Sequence record: MH051914
DNA: 64,000 bases
Direction: 5' to 3' (one strand)
Origin: Enterobacteria phage vB_EcoM_IME338
In this document: piece after piece, positions 25,086 to 64,000 of the stretch
Position numbering within the stretch: position 1 is the first letter of the stretch
Layout: every line of letters begins with the position of its first letter
Notes under the pieces: model-generated
Database searches by the model: none
Seen by the model: only the letters and a program-made list of their open reading frames with translations
Told to the model about the DNA's origin: nothing
Position numbers and translations under genes: made by a program

Positions 25086-26501
25086 ATGAGCGAGTTATTT
25101 AAACATGCGCACCTTCATGCAGGTCGAACTGAAAATGGTGCTGTAAACCATACTTCATCAATGTCTGCTCTGGTAGACTTCTACAAAGCCGCTGGCTCAA
25201 GCCGTAGCAATGTAGAAATCTTACCAGACCTGTTCTACAAAGCTTTGCGTGAGGATGTTGATGTTGCAGTTCGTATTTTACTGCATATGCGAGATGTAAG
25301 AGAAGGTATGGGTGAGCGTAAAGCTTTCCGAACTGTTTTACTTCAAGCGATTGAAGATAAGGTTTTAGAGCCTACACAGGTTCTTCGCATTATGGATAAG
25401 ATTGCAGAACTTGGTCGTTTTGATGACTTCAAAATCTTCGTAGGTACTCGTTTTGAGACAGATGCCTTCAAACATTTAGAATCAGCATTACTAGACCCTG
25501 CAACAGCAGGTTTAGCAGCTAAGTGGTTGCCACGAGTAAAACCACGCCACAAACAGTTTGTAAAACGTTTCTGCAAGTTTGCAAACTTAAGTGAGAAGGA
25601 GTATCGCACACTGTTGTCTGCACTATCTGATACGGTTGAGCAAAAAATCTCTGCTAATAAGTTTGGTAAGATTGACTACAGCAAGATTCCTTCACTCGCT
25701 GCTGCACGTTACCAAAAGCTCTTTAACCGTAAAGATGGGGAACGTTACAAAGCTTACATCGAGTCCCTCTCAAAAGGTGAGGCTAAGATTAACGCTGGTG
25801 CTGTTTACCCATACGATGTGATTAAATCTATCAAGTATGGTAATGCAGATGTTGCTAATGAGCAGTGGAAAGCACTACCAAACTGGATGGCAGAGGGTGA
25901 AAACATCTTGTGTATGACTGATGTTTCAAGCTCAATGTCTTGGGTGAATCTTGGTTCAATCACTGCCCTTGATATTGGTGTATCACTTGCCTTGTATGTA
26001 GCAGAACGCAATACAGGTTGCTTTAAAGATGAGTTAATGGTCTATTCAACAAACCCTCATTTCATTGAACTGAGTGGTGATTTACGAAACCGTCATCGTC
26101 AGGTAATGCGTCATGTTGAATATGGTTCAACTAACTTACAAGCAGCTTTTGACCGTATTCTTGAGGTAGGTAAGAGAAACAACTTGACTCAGAAAGATAT
26201 GCCAAGTAAGCTTATCATCTTCTCCGATATGGAGTTCAATCAGGTTGATGGAGCAAATGGTCGTACAAACTTTGAAGCAATTCAGAGTAAGTACAAAAAA
26301 GCTGGATACGAAATGCCACAACTAGTATTCTGGTACTTAGCAAACCGTAATGGGACTTGCGAAGTATCTGTTAAGGATAATGGTGTAGCAATGGTATCAG
26401 GGTTCTCTCCAGCCACTTTAAAAGCTCTGCTTGGTGGTGAGAAGTTTGACCCAATCAGCGTAATGCTCAAAGCAGTAATGATTGACCGTTACATCTGGTA
26501 A
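25086..26501 (+). CDS. rsr: Ro60/Rsr-like protein (C-terminal vWA with MIDAS; TROVE-like N-terminus)
   Basis: MIDAS DVSSSMS...T...D; C-terminal blocks IIFSDMEF and NRNGTCEVSVKDNGVAMVSGFSPATLKAL align with recalled human Ro60 vWA region; helical N-terminal region. Confidence 0.65.
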   Translation: MSELFKHAHLHAGRTENGAVNHTSSMSALVDFYKAAGSSRSNVEILPDLFYKALREDVDVAVRILLHMRDVREGMGERKAFRTVLLQAIEDKVLEPTQVLRIMDKIAELGRFDDFKIFVGTRFETDAFKHLESALLDPATAGLAAKWLPRVKPRHKQFVKRFCKFANLSEKEYRTLLSALSDTVEQKISANKFGKIDYSKIPSLAAARYQKLFNRKDGERYKAYIESLSKGEAKINAGAVYPYDVIKSIKYGNADVANEQWKALPNWMAEGENILCMTDVSSSMSWVNLGSITALDIGVSLALYVAERNTGCFKDELMVYSTNPHFIELSGDLRNRHRQVMRHVEYGSTNLQAAFDRILEVGKRNNLTQKDMPSKLIIFSDMEFNQVDGANGRTNFEAIQSKYKKAGYEMPQLVFWYLANRNGTCEVSVKDNGVAMVSGFSPATLKALLGGEKFDPISVMLKAVMIDRYIW

Positions 26502-26519
26502 AAAGTTTTAAAAAGGGTA

Positions 26520-26548
26520 TTGACAACGTGTTTGATACCCTTTAATAT
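26520..26548 (+). promoter_or_regulatory. sigma70-like promoter (tRNA/ncRNA array), overlapped by palindrome GGGTAT...ATACCC
   Basis: TTGACA-N17-TAATAT. Confidence 0.6.
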
Positions 26549-26610
26549 GTTCTACATAGAAACGAAATGAGAACTTTTCTAAGATACTGAAAAATATTTT
26601 AAAAAAGTTC

Positions 26611-26640
26611 TTGACAACCACTAAAAAATAATGTTAAAGT
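26611..26640 (+). promoter_or_regulatory. second sigma70-like promoter for tRNA array
   Basis: TTGACA-N17/18-TAAAGT. Confidence 0.55.
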
Positions 26641-26666
26641 GGTTACATAGAGTTTGAAAAGTTTAT

Positions 26667-26743
26667 CTCTGTTTAGCTCAGCTTGGTAGAGCGTTCCGTT
26701 TGGGGCGGTAAGGCCGGAGGTTCAAGTCCTCCAACAGAGACCA
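26667..26743 (+). tRNA. tRNA-Pro (anticodon TGG)
   Basis: manual cloverleaf: acceptor CTCTGTT/AACAGAG, anticodon loop TTTGGGG, T-arm GGAGG-TTCAAGT-CCTCC, CCA encoded. Confidence 0.75.
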
Positions 26744-26750
26744 AATTAAT

Positions 26751-26828
26751 GTTCCAGTAGACAAAATGGTATAGTCACCACTCTTTCAAAGTGGATATTT
26801 GAGGGTTCAAATCCCTTCTGGAACGCCA
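26751..26828 (+). tRNA. tRNA-Glu (anticodon TTC)
   Basis: acceptor GTTCCAG/CTGGAAC, anticodon arm CCACT-CTTTCAA-AGTGG, CCA encoded. Confidence 0.75.
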
Positions 26829-26835
26829 GTTTTGA

Positions 26836-26908
26836 CAGAAGACCAATTACAGCAAACTTAATCTTATTCATCTGACACGAAATCGGACAAAGAAGAGATT
26901 TGGTCTGG
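26836..26908 (+). ncRNA. Y-RNA-like structured element E1
   Basis: 5' CAGAAGACCAATTACAGCAA ... 3' TTGGTCTGG; terminal helix AGACCAA/TTGGTCT. Confidence 0.4.
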
Positions 26909-26919
26909 TCATTAAGAAT

Positions 26920-26996
26920 TGCGGGTATAGAGAAAGGGCGTCTCACATGTCTCATTAGCATGGTATCGGCAGGTTCGACTCCTGCACCCGCCTCCA
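26920..26996 (+). tRNA. tRNA-Met-like (anticodon CAT), atypical acceptor/D junction
   Basis: D-arm GAGA/TCTC, anticodon arm CATGT-CTCATTA-GCATG, T-arm GCAGG-TTCGACT-CCTGC; acceptor pairs only with a 3-nt connector or 1-72 mismatch. Confidence 0.5.
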
Positions 26997-27002
26997 ATTT
27001 TG

Positions 27003-27062
27003 CAGAAGACCGTATGCAGCAATAAACTACTTTTTGCGGATAAAAGAAAAAACACGGTCTGG
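27003..27062 (+). ncRNA. Y-RNA-like structured element E2
   Basis: 5' CAGAAGACCGTATGCAGCAA ... 3' ACGGTCTGG; helix AGACCGT/ACGGTCT (compensatory vs E1). Confidence 0.4.
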
Positions 27063-27073
27063 CAACCTATTAA

Positions 27074-27147
27074 GGTTAGGAAGCACATGAGGTATGTGCG
27101 GTCGCCTGTTAAGCGAATGGCACAGGGTTCGAATCCCTGACTAACCG
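27074..27147 (+). tRNA. tRNA-Asn (anticodon GTT)
   Basis: D-arm GCAC/GTGC, anticodon loop CTGTTAA, T-arm CAGGG-TTCGAAT-CCCTG. Confidence 0.75.
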
Positions 27148-27159
27148 CAAAATTTAAAT

Positions 27160-27247
27160 GTGTCGTTATCCCGTAGATGGTAGCGGTGGGGACTGTAAAT
27201 CCCTTGTCATTGAGACTCGGTAGGTTCGACTCCTACACGGCACACCA
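27160..27247 (+). tRNA. tRNA-Tyr (anticodon GTA), class II
   Basis: acceptor GTGTCGT/ACGGCAC, anticodon arm GGGGA-CTGTAAA-TCCCT, long variable arm, T-arm GTAGG-TTCGACT-CCTAC, CCA. Confidence 0.75.
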
Positions 27248-27308
27248 ATTTTGAGAGGGCTATTTAGCCCCTCCCTTAAAGGGTTCTTACGAGTATTCTT
27301 TAAAGGAG

Positions 27309-27382
27309 CAGAAGACCAAATACAGCAAGTTATTTAAAATTTCAAGCCAATTTAATTTTGAAAAATTTAAAACTTGGTCTGG
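27309..27382 (+). ncRNA. Y-RNA-like structured element E3
   Basis: 5' CAGAAGACCAAATACAGCAA ... 3' TTGGTCTGG. Confidence 0.4.
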
Positions 27383-27395
27383 CTCAACAAATTTA

Positions 27396-27526
27396 CAGAA
27401 AACCGTTTACAGCAAAACTTAAACAATCTATTTCTCGGTAAAGAAAAGGCGAAGGTTCGATTCCTTCACTCGGCAGATGTCGAGTTGGTGTAATGGTAGC
27501 ACTTAAGATGATAAACAACGGTCTGG
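27396..27526 (+). ncRNA. YrlA-like RNA candidate: terminal helix enclosing a permuted tRNA-like module
   Basis: ends CAGAAAACCGTTTACAGCAA / AACGGTCTGG; internal T-arm GAAGG-TTCGATT-CCTTC, closed acceptor-like hairpin ACTCGGC-AGAT-GTCGAGT, D-arm GTGT-AATGGTA-GCAC. Confidence 0.5.
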
Positions 27527-27529
27527 TAA

Positions 27530-27669
27530 TTATCTTTGTAGATAAGTTATTAAGCTTACCTGTGAGTATGCGACCACAAAGGGTGAAAGGGTAAATTCTA
27601 GATTTAAACCCAACAAGGCACATCGCTACAGACCTTAAGCAAGTCTGGGTAGCTTATCTACAAAGATAA
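27530..27669 (+). ncRNA. structured RNA candidate with perfect 17-bp terminal stem
   Basis: TTATCTTTGTAGATAAG pairs with CTTATCTACAAAGATAA about 105 nt away; inner bulged hairpin CTACAGAC/GTCTGGGTAG. Confidence 0.4.
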
Positions 27670-27675
27670 TTTAAT

Positions 27676-27751
27676 GGAAGTGTAGCAGAATGGTGATGCG
27701 GCAGACTTTTAATCTGACAGGCGATGGGTTCGAATCCCTCCACTTCTACCA
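27676..27751 (+). tRNA. tRNA-Lys (anticodon TTT)
   Basis: acceptor GGAAGTG/CACTTCT, anticodon loop CTTTTAA, T-loop TTCGAAT; T-stem only 3 G-C pairs. Confidence 0.6.
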
Positions 27752-27755
27752 ATAT

Positions 27756-27832
27756 GGTTCAGTCGCAGATAAGGTAATGCAGGGGTCTCATAAGCCCTAT
27801 GAATGTGGGTTCGATTCCCATCTGAACCTCCA
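27756..27832 (+). tRNA. tRNA-Met (anticodon CAT; initiator/elongator/Ile2 not resolved)
   Basis: acceptor GGTTCAG/CTGAACC, anticodon arm GGGGT-CTCATAA-GCCCT, T-arm GTGGG-TTCGATT-CCCAT. Confidence 0.7.
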
Positions 27833-27834
27833 AT

Positions 27835-27910
27835 GCTGTGAAAGCACATATGGATGTGCATTCGGCTGATAACCGAAAGGCAGAAGGTTCGAATCCTTCT
27901 CACAGTACCA
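27835..27910 (+). tRNA. tRNA-Ile (anticodon GAT)
   Basis: canonical: D GCAC/GTGC, anticodon arm TTCGG-CTGATAA-CCGAA, T-arm GAAGG-TTCGAAT-CCTTC, CCA. Confidence 0.85.
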
Positions 27911-27925
27911 ATTTCAATAAAGTTG

Positions 27926-27954
27926 TTGACATTGATGTGTGACTACTTTATAGT
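27926..27954 (+). promoter_or_regulatory. internal sigma70-like promoter within tRNA region
   Basis: TTGACA-N17-TATAGT. Confidence 0.55.
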
Positions 27955-28157
27955 AACCTTAGTTTTCGTTGCGTAGCGTCTATTTTGCAAATCTAAAATA
28001 AATGCAAACGACAATGTTTTTCTGGCAGTAGCTTGATAGGCTAAACACCAGTGAGGTCTTCCAATCCCTCATCAAAGAATTTGGCGTACTCGCCCACGGT
28101 ATGATTAATAAGGTGGGCATCTTTAAGGGCTTTCTAAGAGAGTCTTTAAAGATTAAT

Positions 28158-28234
28158 GCACCCTTAGTTCAACTGGACAGAACAAATGACTTCTAATCAT
28201 TAGGTTACAGGTTCGAATCCTGTAGGGTGTGCCA
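28158..28234 (+). tRNA. tRNA-Arg (anticodon TCT)
   Basis: D GTTC/GAAC, anticodon arm AATGA-CTTCTAA-TCATT, T-arm ACAGG-TTCGAAT-CCTGT, CCA. Confidence 0.8.
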
Positions 28235-28376
28235 AATAGTTAGCAGATTGCTTAGACGACCTTATCGGGTCTCCGTGTAAGGAGGTGGTCTGTATCTCAT
28301 GTTTTCCAGAACATGTAAATAATCTGAGAAGGGGCTTTACAGTGTTGTGAAAATACGGTAAGCTTCGAATTATAGT

Positions 28377-28459
28377 GTGGGACGATGTTAAGACTCTAAG
28401 GCATGAGCAACGGCTTCCAACACCGTTTCAAAGGGGTTCAACTCCTCCGTCCCATGCCA
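28377..28459 (+). tRNA. tRNA-Trp-like (anticodon CCA) with 7-nt insertion between acceptor stem and D-arm
   Basis: acceptor GTGGGAC/GTCCCAT + CCA; D ACTC-TAAGGCAT-GAGC; anticodon arm AACGG(C)-TTCCAAC-(A)CCGTT with 31-39 mismatch; T-loop TTCAACT; 9-nt connector instead of 2. Confidence 0.45.
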
Positions 28460-28472
28460 AAGTCTTATTAGG

Positions 28473-28560
28473 GGTAGGTAGCGGCTAATGGTAGCCAAAC
28501 TGTCTTGAAAACAGTTGCCACTGTAGAGATACGGTGAGGGTTCGACTCCTTTACTTACCG
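28473..28560 (+). tRNA. tRNA-Ser (anticodon TGA), class II
   Basis: acceptor GGTAGGT/ACTTACC, anticodon arm ACTGT-CTTGAAA-ACAGT, variable arm stem CTGTA/TACGG, T-loop TTCGACT. Confidence 0.7.
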
Positions 28561-28817
28561 CCTAATAAGATTTAAAGCCAAGCTTCATTCGGATGTTGCT
28601 TTGGTATCCCTCGTGTATTGTCGTACACCCTGATAAAGCACCTAGTAGGTGTCACGGAGAAGAGATAATATCAAGCTCTCCAAAGGTTCTAGTCACCGGA
28701 TTGAACAAGACTATGCAAAGACCAATTTAGGTCTTTTTAGAGGGCTTCTAAGGTTATTACAGCTTGTTGTGGAACCTTGTTGCTTAGGTTCTTAGAAGTT
28801 CTCTAAAAAGATTTAAT

Positions 28818-28894
28818 GCACCTATAGCCCAACTGGTAGAGGCAGCAGACTTAGAATCTGCTCAGTGTGAGTTCGAATCTCTCTAGGTGTACCA
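28818..28894 (+). tRNA. tRNA with anticodon TAG (Leu by anticodon) but short variable arm
   Basis: acceptor GCACCTA/TAGGTGT, anticodon arm GCAGA-CTTAGAA-TCTGC, T-loop TTCGAAT, A73, CCA. Confidence 0.6.
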
Positions 28895-28901
28895 AATTAA
28901 T

Positions 28902-28977
28902 GCAGGTGTAGCAAAATGGTTATGCGGCTGACTCTTAATCAGTAAGACGATGGGTTCAATTCCCTCCACCTGTACCA
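28902..28977 (+). tRNA. tRNA-Lys (anticodon CTT)
   Basis: paralog of Lys-TTT gene; anticodon loop CTCTTAA; CCA. Confidence 0.6.
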
Positions 28978-28983
28978 AACATT

Positions 28984-29059
28984 GGGGTCATAGTTTATAT
29001 GGTTAAAATTCGAGTTTTGCAAACTTGGGAACTGAGTTCAATTCTCAGTGACTCCACCA
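28984..29059 (+). tRNA. tRNA-Ala (anticodon TGC)
   Basis: acceptor GGGGTCA/TGACTCC with G3-U70 identity pair, anticodon loop TTTGCAA, T-arm CTGAG-TTCAATT-CTCAG, CCA. Confidence 0.8.
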
Positions 29060-29065
29060 ATTAGT

Positions 29066-29140
29066 GCATCCATAGTTTAAACGGGAAAATTACAGTCTTC
29101 CAAACTGAGGTTGAGGGTTCGATTCCCTCTGGATGCTCCA
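29066..29140 (+). tRNA. tRNA-Gly (anticodon TCC)
   Basis: acceptor GCATCCA/TGGATGC, anticodon loop CTTCCAA, T-arm GAGGG-TTCGATT-CCCTC, CCA. Confidence 0.75.
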
Positions 29141-29147
29141 AATTAAT

Positions 29148-29224
29148 GCTGCTTTCGTATAATTGGCTATTACACATCCCTTGTAAGGATGGAAATGCAG
29201 GTTCGAGTCCTGTGAGCAGCACCA
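29148..29224 (+). tRNA. tRNA-Thr (anticodon TGT)
   Basis: anticodon arm CATCC-CTTGTAA-GGATG, T-arm GCAGG-TTCGAGT-CCTGT, CCA. Confidence 0.75.
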
Positions 29225-29227
29225 ATT

Positions 29228-29319
29228 CAGAGGTCAAGTGAAAGACCGCTGGTGTCAACTGAAGACCGTAACAAATTCCACGGAGTTGAGTTAGCGGCAC
29301 AACTTCAGACCTCTTTCAT
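29228..29319 (+). ncRNA. structured element E6 with two GAAGACC-type motifs
   Basis: CAGAGGTC...GACCTCTTTCAT terminal pairing; internal GTGAAAGACCGC and CTGAAGACCGTAACAAA. Confidence 0.3.
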
Positions 29320-29394
29320 ACTCGCTTAGTTTATATGGTAAAACACCACCCTTACAAGATGAAGAAAAAGGTTCAAGTCCTTTAGTGAGTACCA
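29320..29394 (+). tRNA. tRNA-Val-like (anticodon TAC) with weak anticodon stem; possible pseudo-tRNA
   Basis: good acceptor, D-arm GTTT/AAAC, T-arm AAAGG-TTCAAGT-CCTTT; anticodon loop CTTACAA but stem CCACC/GATGA has 3 of 5 pairs. Confidence 0.45.
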
Positions 29395-29395
29395 T

Positions 29396-29474
29396 GTTCC
29401 AGTATCCCAATTGGCAGAGAGGCCAGACTTAAAATCTGTGTTATGTATCGGTTCGAATCCGATATGGAGTACCA
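29396..29474 (+). tRNA. tRNA-Leu-like (anticodon TAA), atypical 5' half
   Basis: T-arm ATCGG-TTCGAAT-CCGAT, anticodon loop CTTAAAA, acceptor GTTCCAG/ATGGAGT with two G-U pairs; D-arm pairing ambiguous. Confidence 0.45.
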
Positions 29475-29479
29475 AATTT

Positions 29480-29555
29480 AGCGGTATAGCATAACTGGCA
29501 ATGCAACAGTCTCTGAAGCTGTCTTATTAAGGTTCAAATCCTTATGCCGCTGCCA
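29480..29555 (+). tRNA. tRNA-Gln (anticodon CTG)
   Basis: D GCAT/ATGC, anticodon arm ACAGT-CTCTGAA-GCTGT, T-arm TAAGG-TTCAAAT-CCTTA, CCA. Confidence 0.75.
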
Positions 29556-29586
29556 CTTCTAAGGATTCTTACGAGAGTCCTTAAAT

Positions 29587-29662
29587 GTGGCCTTATCATA
29601 AATGGTAATAACCCATGCTGTGAACATGGTCTATACGGGTTCAAATCCCGTAGGTCACCCCA
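29587..29662 (+). tRNA. tRNA-His (anticodon GTG)
   Basis: anticodon arm CCATG-CTGTGAA-CATGG, T-arm ACGGG-TTCAAAT-CCCGT, C73, CCA; no encoded G-1. Confidence 0.7.
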
Positions 29663-29667
29663 ATTTA

Positions 29668-29744
29668 TAGTCCAAGTAGCTTATATGGTTAAAGCGCGTG
29701 TCTGAAAAACATGAGAAGAGGGTTCAAATCCCACTGGACTACCA
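29668..29744 (+). tRNA. tRNA-Phe-like (anticodon GAA), 4-nt acceptor/D connector
   Basis: perfect acceptor TAGTCCA/TGGACTA, D GCTT/AAGC, anticodon arm CGTGT-CTGAAAA-ACATG, T-loop TTCAAAT. Confidence 0.55.
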
Positions 29745-29760
29745 ATTTCAAAGGTGCTTA

Positions 29761-30495
29761 ATGAAAGAGATGACAGAACAAGGTAAGGAGATTTTTAATC
29801 TCTTAAAAACCGGTAGAGGGTTTTCTAATCCCCTTATTACTGGTGCAGCAGTTCTCGGTGGAACCGTAGCTGCCTCTACATCACTTATAAGCTCTATTAG
29901 CTCTGTAACAGACCCTACAATAAAGGATAAACTTGTTGCTGCTGGACTGACAACAGTTCTGCTTAACAGCTTTACAACGAGCCTGACAAGCACTACATCA
30001 ACCACTAAGACATTGACAGACTACGGTCAAAAGTCTATTGATGAGTTTTCATCACGTATGCAGGTAGCAAAAGGCTATTCTAATGTTATGGGTGCAGCAG
30101 GAGAGCAAGTTGGTTGTACACCATTTAGTGGTATTATGGGTGTTGCTACAGAGTATGGTCAAAAAGCTATTGACACAATTAACAGTGCACTAGATGGTGT
30201 TAATGATGTATTAAGCGACTTACAAGATGCTATTGATAAAGGTCTTGATACTATTTCTGATTTAGCTAACCAAGCTGTTAGCAAGATTAATGAAGGTATC
30301 TCAAAGATTACAGCTTATGCAGATGAAGTTGTGCAGATGATTGAAGAAGAAGCTGCCCTTATTGCAGAGTACCTTAAAACGAATATCAATGGGTTCTTAG
30401 CAGGTATCTTACCAGACTGGTTTGACGATGCTTGTAAAACTGGTGTAATTGATACTATTGCAACACCAGAAATGAAGAACGCATTACAGAAATAA
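29761..30495 (+). CDS. hypothetical Ser/Thr/Ala-rich protein embedded in tRNA array
   Basis: start reset to ATG 29761 with AAAGGTG RBS; track start 29698 would overlap tRNA-Phe-like gene. Confidence 0.5.
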   Translation: MKEMTEQGKEIFNLLKTGRGFSNPLITGAAVLGGTVAASTSLISSISSVTDPTIKDKLVAAGLTTVLLNSFTTSLTSTTSTTKTLTDYGQKSIDEFSSRMQVAKGYSNVMGAAGEQVGCTPFSGIMGVATEYGQKAIDTINSALDGVNDVLSDLQDAIDKGLDTISDLANQAVSKINEGISKITAYADEVVQMIEEEAALIAEYLKTNINGFLAGILPDWFDDACKTGVIDTIATPEMKNALQK

Positions 30496-30496
30496 T

Positions 30497-30589
30497 GGAA
30501 GATTAACCCTAAAAGGTAAGGGAGCAGTTTGCTAAACTGCCAGTAGCTGAGAAATCGGTGTACCAGTTCAAGTCTGGTATCTTCCTCCA
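30497..30589 (+). tRNA. tRNA-Ser (anticodon GCT), class II
   Basis: acceptor GGAAGAT/ATCTTCC, anticodon arm GCAGT-TTGCTAA-ACTGC, long variable arm, T-arm ACCAG-TTCAAGT-CTGGT, CCA. Confidence 0.75.
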
Positions 30590-30593
30590 ATTT

Positions 30594-30669
30594 GAATCCG
30601 TGACAGAAATGGATATGTGCCTGTCTGCAAAACAGGTTTATAAGGGTTCGAGTCCCTTCGGATTCTCCA
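30594..30669 (+). tRNA. tRNA-Cys (anticodon GCA)
   Basis: acceptor GAATCCG/CGGATTC, anticodon arm CCTGT-CTGCAAA-ACAGG, T-arm AAGGG-TTCGAGT-CCCTT, CCA. Confidence 0.8.
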
Positions 30670-30706
30670 AGTTATTTTACTCTCTCTCAATTAAAATAAT
30701 AATAAT

Positions 30707-30766
30707 GCCCTGCTATAAGTATTCTTCCTTTCGCTACCGAAGAGTATTTTTAGACAGGGCTTTTTT
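30707..30766 (+). terminator. compound terminator hairpin
   Basis: GCCCTG ... CAGGGC followed by T6, inner hairpin. Confidence 0.5.
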
Positions 30767-30831
30767 ACAGAGTTATACTTTATAAGAAGACTTATACAGT
30801 ATGTCTCTGACGTACATTGTGGTTTCTCCTT

Positions 30832-30855
30832 GACGGTCTCTGTACCGTCTTTTTT
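30832..30855 (+). terminator. rho-independent terminator
   Basis: GACGGT-CTCTGT-ACCGTC followed by T6. Confidence 0.6.
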
Positions 30856-30891
30856 AAGGAGAAACATGGTTAATTATTTGGAGAAAACATA

Positions 30892-31092
30892 ATGAGCGAG
30901 ACCGTTTATAAAGAACTTTATGAAGCTAATAAGAAGCTAGAATTTATGCAGAACACTATCATGGCAATTGCAGACAGATTGTCTGTAGCAACAGGTATTG
31001 ATATTAAAGAGGCATCTATGGATGCACTTCTTGATGCTGTTGATGCAAAGTTCGAAGTTAAGAAAGAAGAGACTGCTACAGACTCTGAATAA
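30892..31092 (+). CDS. small hypothetical protein upstream of terminase
   Basis: 66 aa, GGAG RBS; too short to call small terminase with confidence. Confidence 0.45.
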   Translation: MSETVYKELYEANKKLEFMQNTIMAIADRLSVATGIDIKEASMDALLDAVDAKFEVKKEETATDSE

Positions 31093-61615: not shown

Positions 61616-61886
61616 ATCTGGTCAATACACTCGCAAGGTGTACCAGTTCTCTTATGAACTTCTCCGCATTTCTACGGAGTGTCGGACTATATCACGTAGC
61701 AGTGATGCTACCGTTGCACTTGGGGATGGTCATTAGCTTACCACCCTACTCTACTCAGTTCATACGTTAAGTATGCTTTTCGATAGTCTCTGAACGTTCC
61801 TCTTAAGAGGCTTCGCTGCTGATTACCATATCTTTCCAGACTTAGGCTTCCAGCAATTCACAACGTTTTACATGCGCCACTGACGC
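61616..61886 (-). other. group I intron interrupting the DNA polymerase gene (boundaries within a few nt)
   Basis: minus-strand RNA carries group I core: P4-like GAAUUGCUGGAAGCC, UAUGGUAAUCAGCAG, P7 strands GUUCAGAGACUA and GAUAUAGUCCGAC; exon 1 frame hits a stop inside. Confidence 0.75.
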
Positions 61887-64000
61887 ATAAATGCCATTTT
61901 TGGCTTTCTTACGACCTTTTGTAATCTCGTGAAGAAGCTCCTCATCCTGCGTCTCCCTACAACGAACAATATCATCTTCCTTGTTTAGACCGAAGTAAAT
62001 ACTATTCAGTGTATGTGCATCAGTACCTGTGTAGACTTCGTAGAGGTCATTCTCAGCATCATAACGAAGATACTTATCAGTTTCTGGATTGAGGTACTTA
62101 TCGAGATGCTTGCAATAGTATCTTCCATCCTCTTGCTTGGTAAATTCTACTGACTCTTTACCTTCAGTTACCGCTTTGGTGAAGTCTTTATCACCCATAA
62201 AGTTACACAGTAAAACAAGCTGTGCAGAGTTCTGGTCAACTGAAACGATATTAGTCCCTTCCTCGCAAATCCACACCTCCCTCATAGGTGCTCCATAGAC
62301 AGCAGCACCAGACGGTACGTTTACAATACCATATTGTGTCATACGTCCAGTTGAAGTACCAAACACCATTGCACCAGCACTAAGGCGACCATCAGGACGA
62401 ATCTGGTTCAACCAACCTTTTTCATCATCCTTTGAGTTCTCAATAGTTCTGCGTCGGTGCATCAAGGTATAGTATTTCGCAATCTTCTGTCCAAGCTCAC
62501 CTTCAATCGTATCATAAGATGATTCAGTAAGTTTTGGTGAAGTACGGATTAAGCAAGGCTCAAGCAAATCTGTGTACTTCTTCACAGACCAGTTATGCTC
62601 AATGTACTGGACACCTTCGTGTTCAACATAACTCAAACCACACCGTTCCACCATCTCATCCCATTTAGGATGCTTTGTAATCATCTTTTTGTTGTCTTTG
62701 AAGCGACAAACCTTAACAGGACGACCATCAGAGTCTTTCTTATAGTTCCAGTCATCTGGAATCCAACCAACTGATTTCAAGTAGTCTTTAACAACTGCTA
62801 CCTGAGTCATACGAGAAACTTCGAACTCAATTGGTGTATATGGTGCATCAATCAAACCTGTGTAGCGACTTGACTCAAGTTCAAAGTGGTTAACAACATG
62901 ACTGTTATAGTACTTCACAGTCTTAACTGTTTTTACTGGCTTCCAGTCTTTGCATTTCTTACCAATCTTTGCATTCAACTCATTGCAAATTGCACGAGCA
63001 TCCTTCATTGCTACAAAGCCTTCCTTGTACTCTTCACCAGTTACCGAGTTGGTTGGTGTATAGCAATTCCGCTTTTCAATGTTAAAAATCTTTGTAGTTG
63101 GCTTACCAAATGGCTTGATTTCATATGTCTGCATCTCACCGTTACGTACCTGTTGACGATACTTTGTCTTAGGGTACTTGGTAATTCTCTTCAGTCCATC
63201 TGCATGACCAAATGCTTCAACATACTCATTCCAAGCTTTTGCAAATTCTTCTCCAGTGACTTTACCTTTGGTCTTAATAGTTGGAGGAAGATGTGGTTCA
63301 ACTTCTGAAGCAAGCTCGTTAGTCAACTTGTCAAGTTCCTTTACATGGAACTCCATAAGCTCTTTATCAGCTTTCCAACCATTGATAGCCTGTTGACTCA
63401 TCCAGAAAGATGTTTCTTTAGCTCGCATGTAGGTTTCATAGGTGTCTACGCCACACTTCTTTAGCTTCAGATATTCATTATCCAATGCACGTTTAGTTTT
63501 GGCGTTAATACGGATATCTTCCACAACACGAGTGAAGATTTCTGCATTCCACACACCCCAATGTTCAATCTCTGGTTTACGGACACCAACACGAGCACCC
63601 CATGCTGCCAAGCCATGAGCACCTTTATAGCCTTTTGGAGTTGGTCTATCCATCCACTGAACACGAGACTGGATAAGAGAATCCTGAAAGAAATTACTCC
63701 ACGGCTTACACTTTGGATTATCAAAGTTCCACAAATCGGGTGCAATGTGATTGAAAACCCACCAGTCATAACCGAGACCGTTATGGATGCAAAGACGTTT
63801 TGCCTTTAACGCAAATTCAACACCTTCACGTAAACCACCCTTAATGTACTTGGTATACTTGTGACCGAGGATAGGTTCATCTGTAAAGACCCATACAGGT
63901 GGCTCTTCATCGTCAGATTTATAGTCTGCGAAAGCCATTACGTGCACTTTAGTGAACTCAAGGAGTAAACCATCAGTTTCTGTATCACCAACTAAATGTA
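61887..64000 (-). CDS. DNA polymerase family A, exon 1 (N-terminal part, runs off window end)
   Basis: Exo I motif DTETDGL in the frame extending past 63947 to the window edge; motif A VSVDQNSAQL; ends inside motif B RKKAKNGIY. Confidence 0.75.

Follow-up and report, generated by a model that had tools for sequence, protein, structure and literature searches.

A probable tRNA-Trp with an expanded acceptor/D linker among irregular, conserved tRNA genes of a Felix O1-like phage

Introduction

Several described classes of RNA offer points of comparison for irregular tRNA genes. Allo-tRNA-like irregular tRNAs (Mukai et al. 2017, reviewed in PMC7609411) come from soil bacteria and metatranscriptomes, are Ser-like, with a long variable arm and anticodons of various kinds; E. 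coli enzymes failed to charge such soil tRNAs, in which an extra loop lies at the acceptor/D junction (PMC7609411). Type I tRNA-Leu, such as S. coelicolor tRNA-Leu(CAA) (PMC6614811) and animal mitochondrial tRNA-Leu, have a short-variable-loop body, and in Streptomyces coelicolor one LeuRS can serve both tRNA-Leu types (PMC6614811). Certain coliphage tRNAs, which are host-isoacceptor copies with anticodon-stem or loop deviations including a shortened stem, have a measured resistance to nucleases (PMC12445682; anticodon-loop variants, PMC10264068), and YrlA-type bacterial Y RNA (PMC4201824) combines tRNA mimicry with a position beside a Ro60-like gene.

The 64,000 nucleotides of Enterobacteria phage vB_EcoM_IME338 analysed here (MH051914; the window) are Felix O1-like phage DNA (Ounavirinae). 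An earlier note had singled out five tRNA-like elements in it. One of them, named Trp-L here, shares with E. coli and phiEa21-4 tRNA-Trp the anticodon loop CUCCAAA (in most Trp-L relatives), G73, A1-U72, a 5-nt variable loop and a TPsiC-type T-loop, and with phiEa21-4 tRNA-Trp (L063:24578-24653) also C31xA39. It differs from bacterial and phage tRNA-Trp, however, in that its acceptor and D stems are 9-11 nt apart rather than 2, its D-stem has 3 bp, its anticodon stem is displaced so as to include 26:44, and tRNA finders miss it. It resembles the allo-tRNA-like tRNAs in that this junction likewise contains additional unpaired nucleotides and that an 8/4 acceptor/T arrangement (G8-C65) is possible, whereas its short arm, Trp identity nucleotides and enterobacterial phage origin set it apart. 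The tRNA-Sec model (Rfam RF01852), which accommodates a lengthened acceptor and an enlarged D region, is the sole Rfam model to align Trp-L, and pairing of the linker with the D-loop would give a composite D helix of 6 bp; Trp-L nevertheless has anticodon CCA rather than UCA, no long variable arm and an acceptor plus T stack of 12 rather than 13 bp. The Leu genes of the window combine phage Leu anticodons with a type I body but, in contrast to the S. coelicolor and mitochondrial examples, are phage-encoded and have a Leu-type D-loop and A73 that fit E. coli rules.

The tRNA array and its irregular members

The region is a phage tRNA array with 22 ARAGORN tRNA calls and 97% identity to Felixounavirus genomes. 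Nearly all of its tRNAs encode the CCA end, and the genes are presumably co-transcribed. Array content differs among phages: Asp is absent here, and Leu(UAG) occurs in only some relatives. Other tRNA-like and Y-RNA-like RNAs are abundant in the region.

Table 1. Irregular tRNA genes of the window and the parts of Trp-L
Feature	Coordinates	Strand	Basis or detail
tRNA(CAU), initiator-like acceptor	26920..26996	+	ARAGORN, Rfam, covariation
Trp-L, candidate 83-nt tRNA-Trp(CCA), expanded acceptor/D linker	28377..28459	+	Whole gene including encoded CCA; fold, covariation, covariance model
Trp-L acceptor 5' strand GUGGGAC	28377..28383	+	7 bp with GUCCCAU at 28449-28455
Trp-L linker GAUGUUAAG	28384..28392	+	9 nt versus canonical 2; alignments
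Trp-L D-arm: A, stem CUC/GAG, loop UAAGGCAU, then C	28393..28408	+	CUC 28394-28396, GAG 28405-28407
Trp-L anticodon arm: AACGG/CCGUU around CUUCCAACA	28409..28427	+	Anticodon CCA 28417-28419
Trp-L T-arm GGGG, UUCAACU, CCUC	28433..28447	+	Helix 4 in covariation test
Trp-L discriminator G73 and encoded CCA end	28456..28459	+	Invariant in all variants
Type I tRNA-Leu(UAG), short variable loop	28818..28894	+	ARAGORN, Rfam, matches to annotated tRNA-Leu genes
tRNA-Val(UAC)	29320..29394	+	ARAGORN, Rfam, covariation
Type I tRNA-Leu(UAA), recombinant here	29396..29474	+	Alignment with paralogues
tRNA-Phe(GAA)	29669..29744	+	ARAGORN, Rfam, covariation

All five described anomalies were recovered where the earlier note had placed them, with one correction: tRNA-Phe starts at 29669 and not at 29668. 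Standard tools returned no canonical cloverleaves with other boundaries. The note had allowed that its manual folding might be at fault, and in the Rfam alignment the CAU tRNA does take another register, in which it begins at G26921, its connector is 2 nt long and position 66 is deleted. With this register, however, a surplus U would precede the CCA end, something that almost no other tRNA of the array shows. The independent ARAGORN drawings contain identical connectors and mismatches for four of the elements, and for the fifth, Trp-L, covariation backs the fold and rejects shifted registers. An artefact of folding or boundary choice is thus largely refuted and hardly credible as an explanation.

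The odd features are found again in distant relatives, in which stems covary while the anticodon loop and discriminator are retained; in the CAU, Phe, Val and Leu tRNAs, too, the stems covary while the defects stay. Judged from these alignments, the oddities would be inherited features of Ounavirinae tRNAs, with folding errors excluded, and all five elements are probably genuine, conserved genes of the Felix O1-type array. Covariation, the kept anticodon loop and discriminator, and the recurrence in distant relatives thus favour one option of the earlier note, real but unusual tRNAs. Its suggested tie to a Ro60/Y-RNA module does not hold for the five elements: the 5' and 3' ends of each are free, making up an acceptor stem that carries an encoded CCA, and, unlike YrlA-type Y RNA, the elements have anticodon loops and no enclosing Y-RNA stem. 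The tRNA mimic of the Ro60/Y-RNA kind in the window is a separate element, at 27396-27526. Taken as a whole, the interpretation first offered is partly supported.

Structure and conservation of Trp-L

The anticodon CCA, 9-nt connector and 31x39 mismatch read by hand in Trp-L were borne out by RNAfold, in which the cloverleaf is both the MFE and the centroid structure, and by covariation, although the thermodynamic z-score is only -1.44. The score with a covariance model is 110 bits. Within the acceptor helix (helix 1), 98% of cells are paired and two pairs have both sides changed; pair 1:72, G.U in the window, is A-U in the majority of relatives, and Arno18 and the metagenome contig L079 have G-C. 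The linker is identical in 16/16 variants, with AU added after it in Arno18. Its A9-U10-G11 could pair with the last three nucleotides of the D-loop in all 16, with wobble-compatible changes only, which we regard as a weak lead. The D-stem has 3 bp, replaced in relatives by CAC/GUG, CAU/GUG or CGU/ACG, and its loop contains G18G19. Double changes affect four of the five anticodon-stem pairs; C31 (28414) and A39 (28422) pair in no variant, which may leave an anticodon loop of effectively 9 nt. A49xC65 flanks the T-arm; alternatively, G8 (28384) may pair with C65 (28448), both bases being invariant, in an 8/4 arrangement.

Trp-L was missed by the standard tRNA finders used and by the public annotations examined. 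ARAGORN made no call even with 80% thresholds, the Rfam tRNA model gave no match, and the only Rfam match, to tRNA-Sec, fell short of the gathering score of 47, with 22.4 bits. When 6 linker nucleotides were removed in silico, ARAGORN called a tRNA-Trp(cca) with the same ends. The gene is present in 235 phage records, and none of the 40 records listed from these annotates it as a tRNA.

Covariation was assessed over 19 pairs in 16 distinct variants from four lineages, with 500 shuffles, five measures and slid controls. Across the cloverleaf 98% of cells are paired, and 9 of the 19 pairs show changes on both sides. At most 1/500 shuffles matched Trp-L on any of the five measures and 0/500 on four of them; slid controls were close to zero. 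The predicted fold is far beyond chance. U33, anticodon CCA, A37, G73 and the CCA end are fixed in all 16 variants; Arno18 has an acceptor-stem bulge and L079 two acceptor mismatches. Sequence conservation (82-89%) is no higher than in the adjoining spacer (87%), so that it is the pattern of substitution that carries the case. The insertion was present before Felixounavirus, Mooglevirus and the Arno18 group diverged, and no base of it has changed since.

Identity and proposed role of Trp-L

The annotated tRNA set covers 19 of the 20 amino acids, and Trp-L supplies the missing one. Sf13, annotated with tRNAscan, has 26 tRNAs for all amino acids but Trp, and the tRNAs of Sf14 likewise cover 19 amino acids (PMC12482277). 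A different tRNA-Trp(CCA), annotated as tRNA-Trp in some cases, is found in 23 other Ounavirinae records that lack Trp-L, and it occupies precisely the Trp-L site in the three loci read; every complete locus examined has either Trp-L or the alternative allele. The best non-family match of the Trp-L model is the phiEa21-4 tRNA-Trp, which is of normal length and also has C31xA39.

These comparisons establish the fold, conservation, identity nucleotides and allelic replacement of Trp-L, and we consider it likely to be a functional tRNA-Trp of new architecture. With its 7-bp acceptor and encoded G73-CCA, it would be cut from the array transcript like its neighbours. It would then adopt the cloverleaf, the 7 extra acceptor/D nucleotides looping out of, or packing onto, the D-arm. 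Host TrpRS could charge it by recognising the discriminator G73, the anticodon CCA and the first pair, the elements that determine Trp identity in E. coli (PMC9976931), and the charged tRNA would read UGG. We found in the literature no expression, processing, modification or charging data for Trp-L and no description of a functional tRNA with a 9-nt acceptor/D linker.

The invariant linker resembles a binding site: no other stretch is as conserved, and in the D-stem each of the three pairs has changed. Trp-L might thus be a non-translational RNA with a tRNA shape for recognition only, serving as a decoy or sponge (for a host nuclease directed at tRNA-Trp, or for TrpRS), as a regulatory RNA or as partner to the neighbouring DUF2828 (Ro60-like) protein. 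A DUF2828/DUF7788 protein gene lies 1.9 kb upstream, the region is crowded with tRNA-like and Y-RNA-like RNAs, and the failure of E. coli enzymes to charge irregular extra-loop tRNAs (PMC7609411) points the same way. A decoy, however, has no need of an invariant CCA anticodon, U33, A37 and G73. Moreover, Trp-L lacks a flanking Ro60-binding helix, its ends making up an ordinary acceptor stem that bears CCA; it serves the one amino acid that the phage tRNA set would otherwise leave out; and where phages lack it, a tRNA-Trp recognised by the tools occupies its site, which argues for a common translational role. We regard a non-translational function as unlikely.

The CAU, Phe and Val tRNAs

The connectors described for the CAU and Phe tRNAs reappear in the ARAGORN drawings. 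The tRNA(CAU) has a 3-nt connector, AUA, a 6-nt variable loop and an unpaired 1x72 in its acceptor (U1xC72, G2-C71, C3-G70), together with A11-U24, U37 and U73; its Rfam score, 28.5 bits, is just below the threshold of 29. The 1x72 position is UxC or CxC in 7/7 variants, and the T-stem covaries. The gene lacks the three G-C pairs and A73 of true initiators, and may be a working isoacceptor with an initiator-like acceptor. The tRNA-Phe(GAA) (45 bits) has a 6-bp acceptor with A7 partnerless, so that A plus GUA is effectively a 4-nt connector, and A50xA64 in a weak T-stem; four acceptor pairs covary and the defects persist.

The poorly paired anticodon stem noted for tRNA-Val(UAC) was confirmed with ARAGORN: C27xA43 and C30xA40 are mismatched and 3/5 pairs form, and Rfam nevertheless gives 55.8 bits. 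Position 30x40 is CxA in 8/14 variants and UxU in 6/14, a mismatch kept across the subfamily. Such deviations (Val 30x40, Trp 31x39, the Leu arm loss and the Trp linker) might have arisen as an evasion of host tRNA-cleaving defence nucleases with translation retained, a tentative possibility that is compatible with functional tRNAs and adds a reason for their oddities. Coliphage tRNA-Thr genes resist P2-OLD through motif changes and a shortened anticodon stem (PMC12445682), a bacterial Schlafen nuclease cuts between nucleotides 30 and 31 with tRNA-Val(UAC) and tRNA-Phe(GAA) among its targets (PMC13056530), and anticodon-loop changes are reported in the related phage Sf14; persistence of two mismatch types at Val 30x40 fits this reading. 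Against it, one phage tRNA is cut better than its host counterpart by this Schlafen nuclease (PMC13056530), and we found no nuclease against tRNA-Trp or the acceptor/D junction for these hosts. Resistance was measured in the described coliphage tRNAs, whereas for Val 30x40 and Trp 31x39 it is suggested by analogy only; by that analogy, conserved mismatches and the linker may help phage tRNAs to escape host nucleases.

Type I tRNA-Leu genes and possible signs of decay

As described before, tRNA-Leu(UAG) has a short variable arm: ARAGORN draws 77 nt with a 4-nt variable loop. It has A73, G1.U72 and a Leu-type D-loop, CAACUGGUAGA, and can be aligned without gaps to genes annotated as tRNA-Leu in unrelated phages. 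Absence of the long arm is common in such phages, with examples from those of Mycobacterium, Streptomyces, Bacillus, Pseudomonas and Klebsiella, and by the tRNAscan isotype models Leu is the top-scoring identity of all three Leu tRNAs of Sf14. The report that E. coli LeuRS charges type II tRNA-Leu only (PMC6614811) counts against the Leu reading; elsewhere the long arm was found unneeded by this enzyme (PMC9976931). Both Leu tRNAs of the window lack the long arm and retain A73, A15-U48, G18G19 and A20a, used by E. coli LeuRS. We suggest that the Val, Phe, CAU and Leu tRNAs are working isoacceptors with family-specific quirks.

Decay, whether as pseudogenes or under relaxed selection in a phage reliant on host tRNAs, with Trp-L disabled by a 7-nt insertion, appears very unlikely. 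Some Felix O1 tRNAs were labelled pseudo by tRNAscan (PMC3185647), and the variable array content and the L079 acceptor mismatches could be read in the same way. But compensatory changes in every stem of the Trp-L, Phe, Val and CAU tRNAs show continued selection on the fold. The age and constancy of the Trp-L insertion and the presence of one or the other allele at each complete locus examined also speak against decay. The pseudo-tRNA status raised earlier is not supported for the conserved features, and is plausible only for two features limited to the window and a few close relatives. One is Val C27xA43, found in the window and one other variant, 27:43 being paired in the other 12. The second is the recombinant Leu(UAA), whose acceptor strand and D-arm at the 5' end come from the Leu(CAA) paralogue and whose remainder comes from Leu(UAA), leaving a damaged acceptor stem (G1.U72, U2.G71, G7xA66); in relatives, about 1 kb (Arg-ACG, ORFs, Gln-UUG) separates the two parents.

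The tRNA array and the element Trp-L

[quoted passage not shown] The 4.5-kb segment in which it lies (26400-30900) shares 95-97% identity with over 200 Felixounavirus genomes, the relatives within the Ounavirinae including Salmonella phage Felix O1, E. coli phage wV8 and their kin. Phages of the Felix O1 type are classic typing and biocontrol phages, and hundreds of their genomes have been sequenced. The + strand of this segment is a phage tRNA array in which ARAGORN recognizes 22 tRNA genes, 20 of which also reach the gathering score of the Rfam tRNA model; nearly all encode the CCA end. Promoter- and terminator-like signals are found as consensus matches only, the hairpin of the latter being 3' of the array.

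Several features of the array and of the window may be recorded here. An unusually high share of the array tRNAs, six, open with a G1.U72 wobble. Three stretches (27248-27310, 27074-27148 and 28473-28562) bear on its gene content: tRNA-Asp, which in relatives directly follows tRNA-Tyr, is absent from the window, and the Asn and Ser(UGA) tRNAs are the only ones in the array that lack an encoded CCA. Outside the array, a full-length group I intron match reaches 62 bits in Rfam (gathering score 50); introns were stated to be absent from the Felix O1 genome (PMC3185647).

Positions of the features discussed (window coordinates unless a related locus is named)
Feature	Position	Sequence or remark
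471-aa DUF2828/DUF7788 protein	25086-26501	
Sigma-70-like promoters	26520, 26611, 27926	perfect TTGACA boxes
tRNA array	26667-30669	
Hairpin modules	26836-26908, 27003-27062, 27309-27382, 27396-27526	
CAU tRNA	26920-26996	
Permuted domain, T-arm	27451-27467	
Permuted domain, closed acceptor hairpin	27468-27485	
Permuted domain, D-arm-like stretch	27486-27502	
G1.U72 tRNAs, first base	27676, 27835, 28158, 28377, 28818, 28902	Lys-UUU, Ile, Arg-UCU, Trp-L, Leu-UAG, Lys-CUU
Spacer upstream of Trp-L	28235-28376	
Trp-L acceptor stem	28377-28383 with 28449-28455	GUGGGAC / GUCCCAU
Trp-L linker	28384-28392	GAUGUUAAG, 9 nt
Trp-L D-stem	28394-28396 with 28405-28407	CUC / GAG, loop UAAGGCAU
Trp-L anticodon stem	28409-28413 with 28423-28427	AACGG / CCGUU around CUUCCAACA
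Trp-L anticodon	28417-28419	CCA
Trp-L variable loop	28428-28432	UCAAA (5 nt)
Trp-L T-arm	28433-28447	GGGG, UUCAACU, CCUC
Trp-L 3' end	28456-28459	G73, CCA
Leu(UAG)	28818-28894	4-nt variable loop
Val(UAC)	29320-29394	
Leu(UAA)	29396-29474	7-nt variable loop
Phe(GAA)	29669-29744	
Terminator-like hairpin	30832	
Group I intron match (- strand)	61662-61945	
71-nt tRNA-Trp(CCA), wV8 (L011)	L011:2152-2222	
71-nt tRNA-Trp(CCA), locus L025	L025:2220-2290	
71-nt tRNA-Trp(CCA), locus L017		
tRNA-like elements near Arg(UCU) in relatives	L011:1921-2002, L025:1981-2048	also L021, L022

Fold and detection of Trp-L

The five anomalous folds that the earlier note had drawn by hand all proved correct: four were redrawn by ARAGORN, and that of Trp-L is both the minimum free energy and the centroid structure of RNAfold. 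Trp-L itself is not called by ARAGORN at default or 80% thresholds, the sole product of the latter being a spurious tRNA-Pyl(cta) that overlaps its 5' half, and a 111-nt slice searched against RF00005 gave no match to it even at E<=10. When 6 linker nucleotides are removed in silico, ARAGORN calls a 77-nt tRNA-Trp(cca) with ends identical to those of Trp-L; the length of the linker is thus what defeats the tRNA finders. The only Rfam model that aligns the element is tRNA-Sec (RF01852), at 22.4 bits versus a cut-off of 47. Besides this low score, the anticodon CCA in place of UCA, the 5-nt variable loop and a 12-bp stack led us to reject a tRNA-Sec, which is marked by a 13-bp stack of acceptor and T-stem, a D-stem of 6 bp, a long variable arm and UCA.

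Measured against a canonical tRNA, the 5' and 3' ends of Trp-L form the usual 7-bp acceptor followed by discriminator G73 and CCA, whereas the 2-nt connector (positions 8-9) is replaced by 9 nt, or by 11 nt in Pectobacterium phage Arno18. The D-arm has a 3-bp covarying stem and retains G18G19. The anticodon stem comprises five covarying pairs spanning 26:44 to 30:40, with 31x39 unpaired in all variants (CxA, or CxC in Arno18), and, given this use of 26:44, the anticodon loop may effectively be 9 nt rather than the canonical 7. The T-stem consists of 4 bp plus an AxC where a canonical tRNA has 5 bp, and G8 could join C65, both bases being invariant, to give an 8/4 acceptor/T arrangement. Irregular acceptors occur among the homologues, with a bulge in Arno18 and two mismatches in a metagenome contig (L079).

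Covariation in the Trp-L family

Homologues were drawn from IMG/VR loci, from GenBank (the Mooglevirus Sf13 and Arno18) and from metagenomes, where the 3' half alone served as anchor of the scan; together they comprise 16 distinct sequences. Across these 16 variants, 98% of cells are in standard pairs and both sides change in 9 of the 19 pairs; in the acceptor, 98% of cells are likewise paired and two pairs covary. Of 500 column shuffles, no more than 1 reached any of five measures (none for four of them), and the pairing signal disappears when partners are slid by 1-3 columns. Four of the five anticodon-stem pairs change (AACGG/CCGUU, GUAAG/CUUAC, GUAGG/CCUAC, ACUUG/CAAGU) and the D-stem takes the forms CUC/GAG, CAC/GUG, CAU/GUG and CGU/ACG; the whole 9-nt linker, U33, the CCA anticodon, A37, G73 and the 3'-terminal CCA are the same in every variant. 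Identity to Moogle-like phages is 82-89% for Trp-L versus 87% for the adjacent upstream spacer, so that sequence conservation cannot serve as evidence of function, and the case rests on the kind of substitutions rather than on their number.

Two other D-arm registers, UGUU/GGCA and GUU/AGC (Rfam Sec alignment), are broken by substitutions in Moogle-like phages and Arno18, whereas CUC/GAG covaries; a helix between linker and 3' trailer (UAAGAC/GUCUUA) was discarded on a differing trailer in one related locus (L024). The upstream spacer, which holds a Y-like stem (GACGACC...GGUGGUC) and two further hairpins, and in Moogle-like phages an extra internal 23-nt hairpin, is probably another structured RNA.

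A probable tRNA-Trp missing from annotations

The identity rule for the enterobacterial TrpRS comprises anticodon C34 C35 A36, discriminator G73 and a first pair A1-U72 (PMC9976931). The first two are invariant in the 16 variants of Trp-L, and 1:72 is A-U in 10 of them, G.U in 4, the window included, and G-C in 2. The element is present in 235 phage records, and in the 40 listed the feature beneath it is either "none" or "hypothetical protein". The tRNAscan-SE annotation of Sf13 contains 26 tRNAs for all amino acids but Trp, with Trp-L lying unannotated between the Arg(UCU) and Ser(UGA) genes; for its sister phage Sf14 the published count is 26 tRNAs and 19 amino acids (PMC12482277), and at this site the Felix O1 genome paper (PMC3185647) has no entry. 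We found no description of a Felixounavirus tRNA-Trp or of the 9-nt linker in the literature, the nearest published precedent being allo-tRNA-like irregular RNAs with an extra acceptor/D loop, which are not charged by E. coli enzymes (PMC7609411).

The complete loci without Trp-L (wV8 and two others) each carry a different tRNA-Trp(CCA), of 71 nt, at exactly its position, 3' of the same conserved spacer. This tRNA has the acceptor AGGGGUG/CACCCCU, G73, a 1-nt connector and a 3-bp D-stem with a 5-nt loop, and occurs in 23 Ounavirinae records, some with a tRNA-Trp annotation. It is followed by an ORF for a 134-aa Cys-rich product with weak HNH similarity (E about 0.006, below the Pfam cut-off), and looks like an allele replacement linked to a homing endonuclease. 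That two elements sharing only the anticodon and identity nucleotides replace each other at one site argues for a shared job.

Two further unannotated tRNA-like elements lie beside Arg(UCU), or replace it, in relatives. In the first, the anticodon loop shows UCU, the D-arm is absent and the variable region measures 23 nt; the second consists of an acceptor and a T-arm with a GCCA end, a short central hairpin taking the place of the D and anticodon arms.

Trp-L is confined to the Ounavirinae within the viral, metagenome and genome collections scanned. A linker-anchored scan of viral contigs found it only in Felix-like contigs, the remainder being chance coding matches; 185,579 representative bacterial and archaeal genomes yielded 23 chance matches and no tRNA; and every copy recovered from metagenomes with the 3' half as anchor has the linker. 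Outside the family, the Trp-L covariance model scores highest (39 bits) on the normal-length tRNA-Trp of the more distant Erwinia phage phiEa21-4, which has the same unusual C31xA39. In the simplest history, a canonical phage tRNA-Trp acquired 7 nt between acceptor and D-stem before the Felixounavirus, Mooglevirus and Arno18 groups split.

Possible roles of the linker

In all 16 variants, linker nucleotides A9-U10-G11 are complementary to the last three nucleotides of the D-loop (CAU, UAU or UGU). Together with the D-stem, this weakly suggests an H-type pseudoknot with a 6-bp composite D helix, the linker being invariant and the support therefore consisting of one-sided, wobble-compatible changes. 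Recoding of UGA by Trp-L was rejected on its anticodon, CCA and not UCA, and on the use of TGA as the stop of 16 of the 66 long ORFs, large terminase included, which makes strong UGA readthrough unlikely; weak readthrough may occur. A more elaborate reading, to which we give rather little credence, is that Trp-L is a working tRNA of undescribed architecture whose invariant linker would either pair with the D-loop, in a pseudoknotted, Sec-like 6-bp D helix, or act as a hinge, and would have been selected for changed ribosome behaviour (e.g. Hirsh-suppressor-like UGA reading) or for invisibility to a host nuclease attacking tRNA-Trp.

The acceptor/D junction controls the bending of tRNA in decoding, and its length is normally fixed at 2 nt. 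According to published reports, the tRNA sets of Felix O1-type phages serve 19 amino acids. Should Trp-L work as a tRNA, these phages would encode the complete set of 20, standard tRNA finders would systematically overlook one conserved gene, and bacterial translation could accommodate a tRNA that is 7 nt longer at this junction. Trp-L would offer tRNA engineers a natural scaffold, and a case, directly testable in E. coli, of how far the tRNA core may be changed.

The four other tRNAs

The four remaining elements are known phage tRNAs that carry annotations, and their quirks are conserved. In the CAU tRNA, ARAGORN draws U1xC72 unpaired, a 3-nt connector AUA and U37; 1x72 is unpaired in all seven variants (UxC, or CxC in two), and two T-stem pairs covary. 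The determinants of the initiator formylase are an unpaired 1x72 with G2-C71, C3-G70 and A11-U24, all of which this tRNA possesses. It lacks the three G-C pairs of initiators at 29-31:39-41, its anticodon stem being CAUGU/GCAUG (U29-A41, G30-C40, U31.G39), and has U73 rather than A73; it is thus initiator-like, not a clear member of the class.

By ARAGORN, tRNA-Phe has a 6-bp acceptor, a partnerless A7 followed by GUA, and a T-stem A50xA64. Its acceptor shows four covarying pairs (e.g. AGUCCA/UGGACU to GGGUUA/UAACCC), the unpaired state of A7 and the T-stem mismatches being retained throughout. In tRNA-Val, three of the five anticodon-stem pairs form in the ARAGORN fold; the 30x40 mismatch is found in all 14 variants, as CxA in 8 and UxU in 6 (Arno18 included), and a second mismatch, C27xA43, is restricted to the window and one other variant.

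The two Leu tRNAs, UAG and UAA, are of type I in the ARAGORN folds, and every Leu gene in the subfamily measures 74-79 nt. Read from the sequence, both carry A73, A15-U48, G18G19 and A20a, which make up the identity set of E. coli LeuRS; the long arm is dispensable for this enzyme, and arm-less variants of E. coli tRNA-Leu stay active (PMC9976931), although type II tRNA-Leu has also been stated to be the only type that E. coli LeuRS charges (PMC6614811). The top-scoring tRNAscan isotype model of the Sf14 orthologues is Leu. Annotated tRNA-Leu genes that match without gaps are present in phages of Mycobacterium, Streptomyces, Gordonia, Bacillus, Enterococcus, Pseudomonas, Klebsiella and Cronobacter, so that a tRNA-Leu lacking the long arm is commonplace among phages and not peculiar to the window.

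The Leu(UAA) gene is itself a recombinant, its first ~25 nt deriving from the Leu(CAA) paralogue and the remainder from Leu(UAA), and the event deleted ~1 kb that relatives keep between these two genes (Arg-ACG, one or two ORFs and Gln-UUG). The resulting acceptor, with two wobbles and a G7xA66 mismatch, is a form common only to one related locus (L020).

Coliphage tRNA-Thr genes evade the P2-OLD nuclease through motif changes and the loss of one anticodon-stem base pair (PMC12445682), and a bacterial Schlafen nuclease, whose several tRNA substrates include Val(UAC) and Phe(GAA), cleaves between nt 30 and 31 (PMC13056530). By analogy, the conserved stem mismatches could lower recognition by host tRNA nucleases, as perhaps could the linker of Trp-L and the missing long arm of the Leu tRNAs. 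The conserved mismatches and arm-less Leu tRNAs are added candidates for the escape of phage tRNAs from tRNA-cleaving immunity.

The proposed Ro60/Y-RNA module

The 471-aa protein matches DUF2828/DUF7788 and is annotated in relatives as "RNA-binding" or vWFA. The earlier note had considered that the five elements might be tied to a Ro60/Y-RNA module. This is not supported. In YrlA/Y RNAs the tRNA-like domain lies within a Ro60-binding stem built from both RNA ends, and a loop closes its acceptor-like helix; all five elements are open-ended tRNAs whose acceptor stems end in CCA, and the permuted, closed form is found only at 27451-27502. Interspersed with the first tRNAs are four hairpin modules that have CAGAAGACC...ACAGCAA and GGUCUGG as their common ends and no match in Rfam. 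The tRNA mimic of the region is one of these, 27396-27526, which encloses the circularly permuted tRNA-like domain and in this respect resembles the YrlA Y RNAs (PMC4201824).
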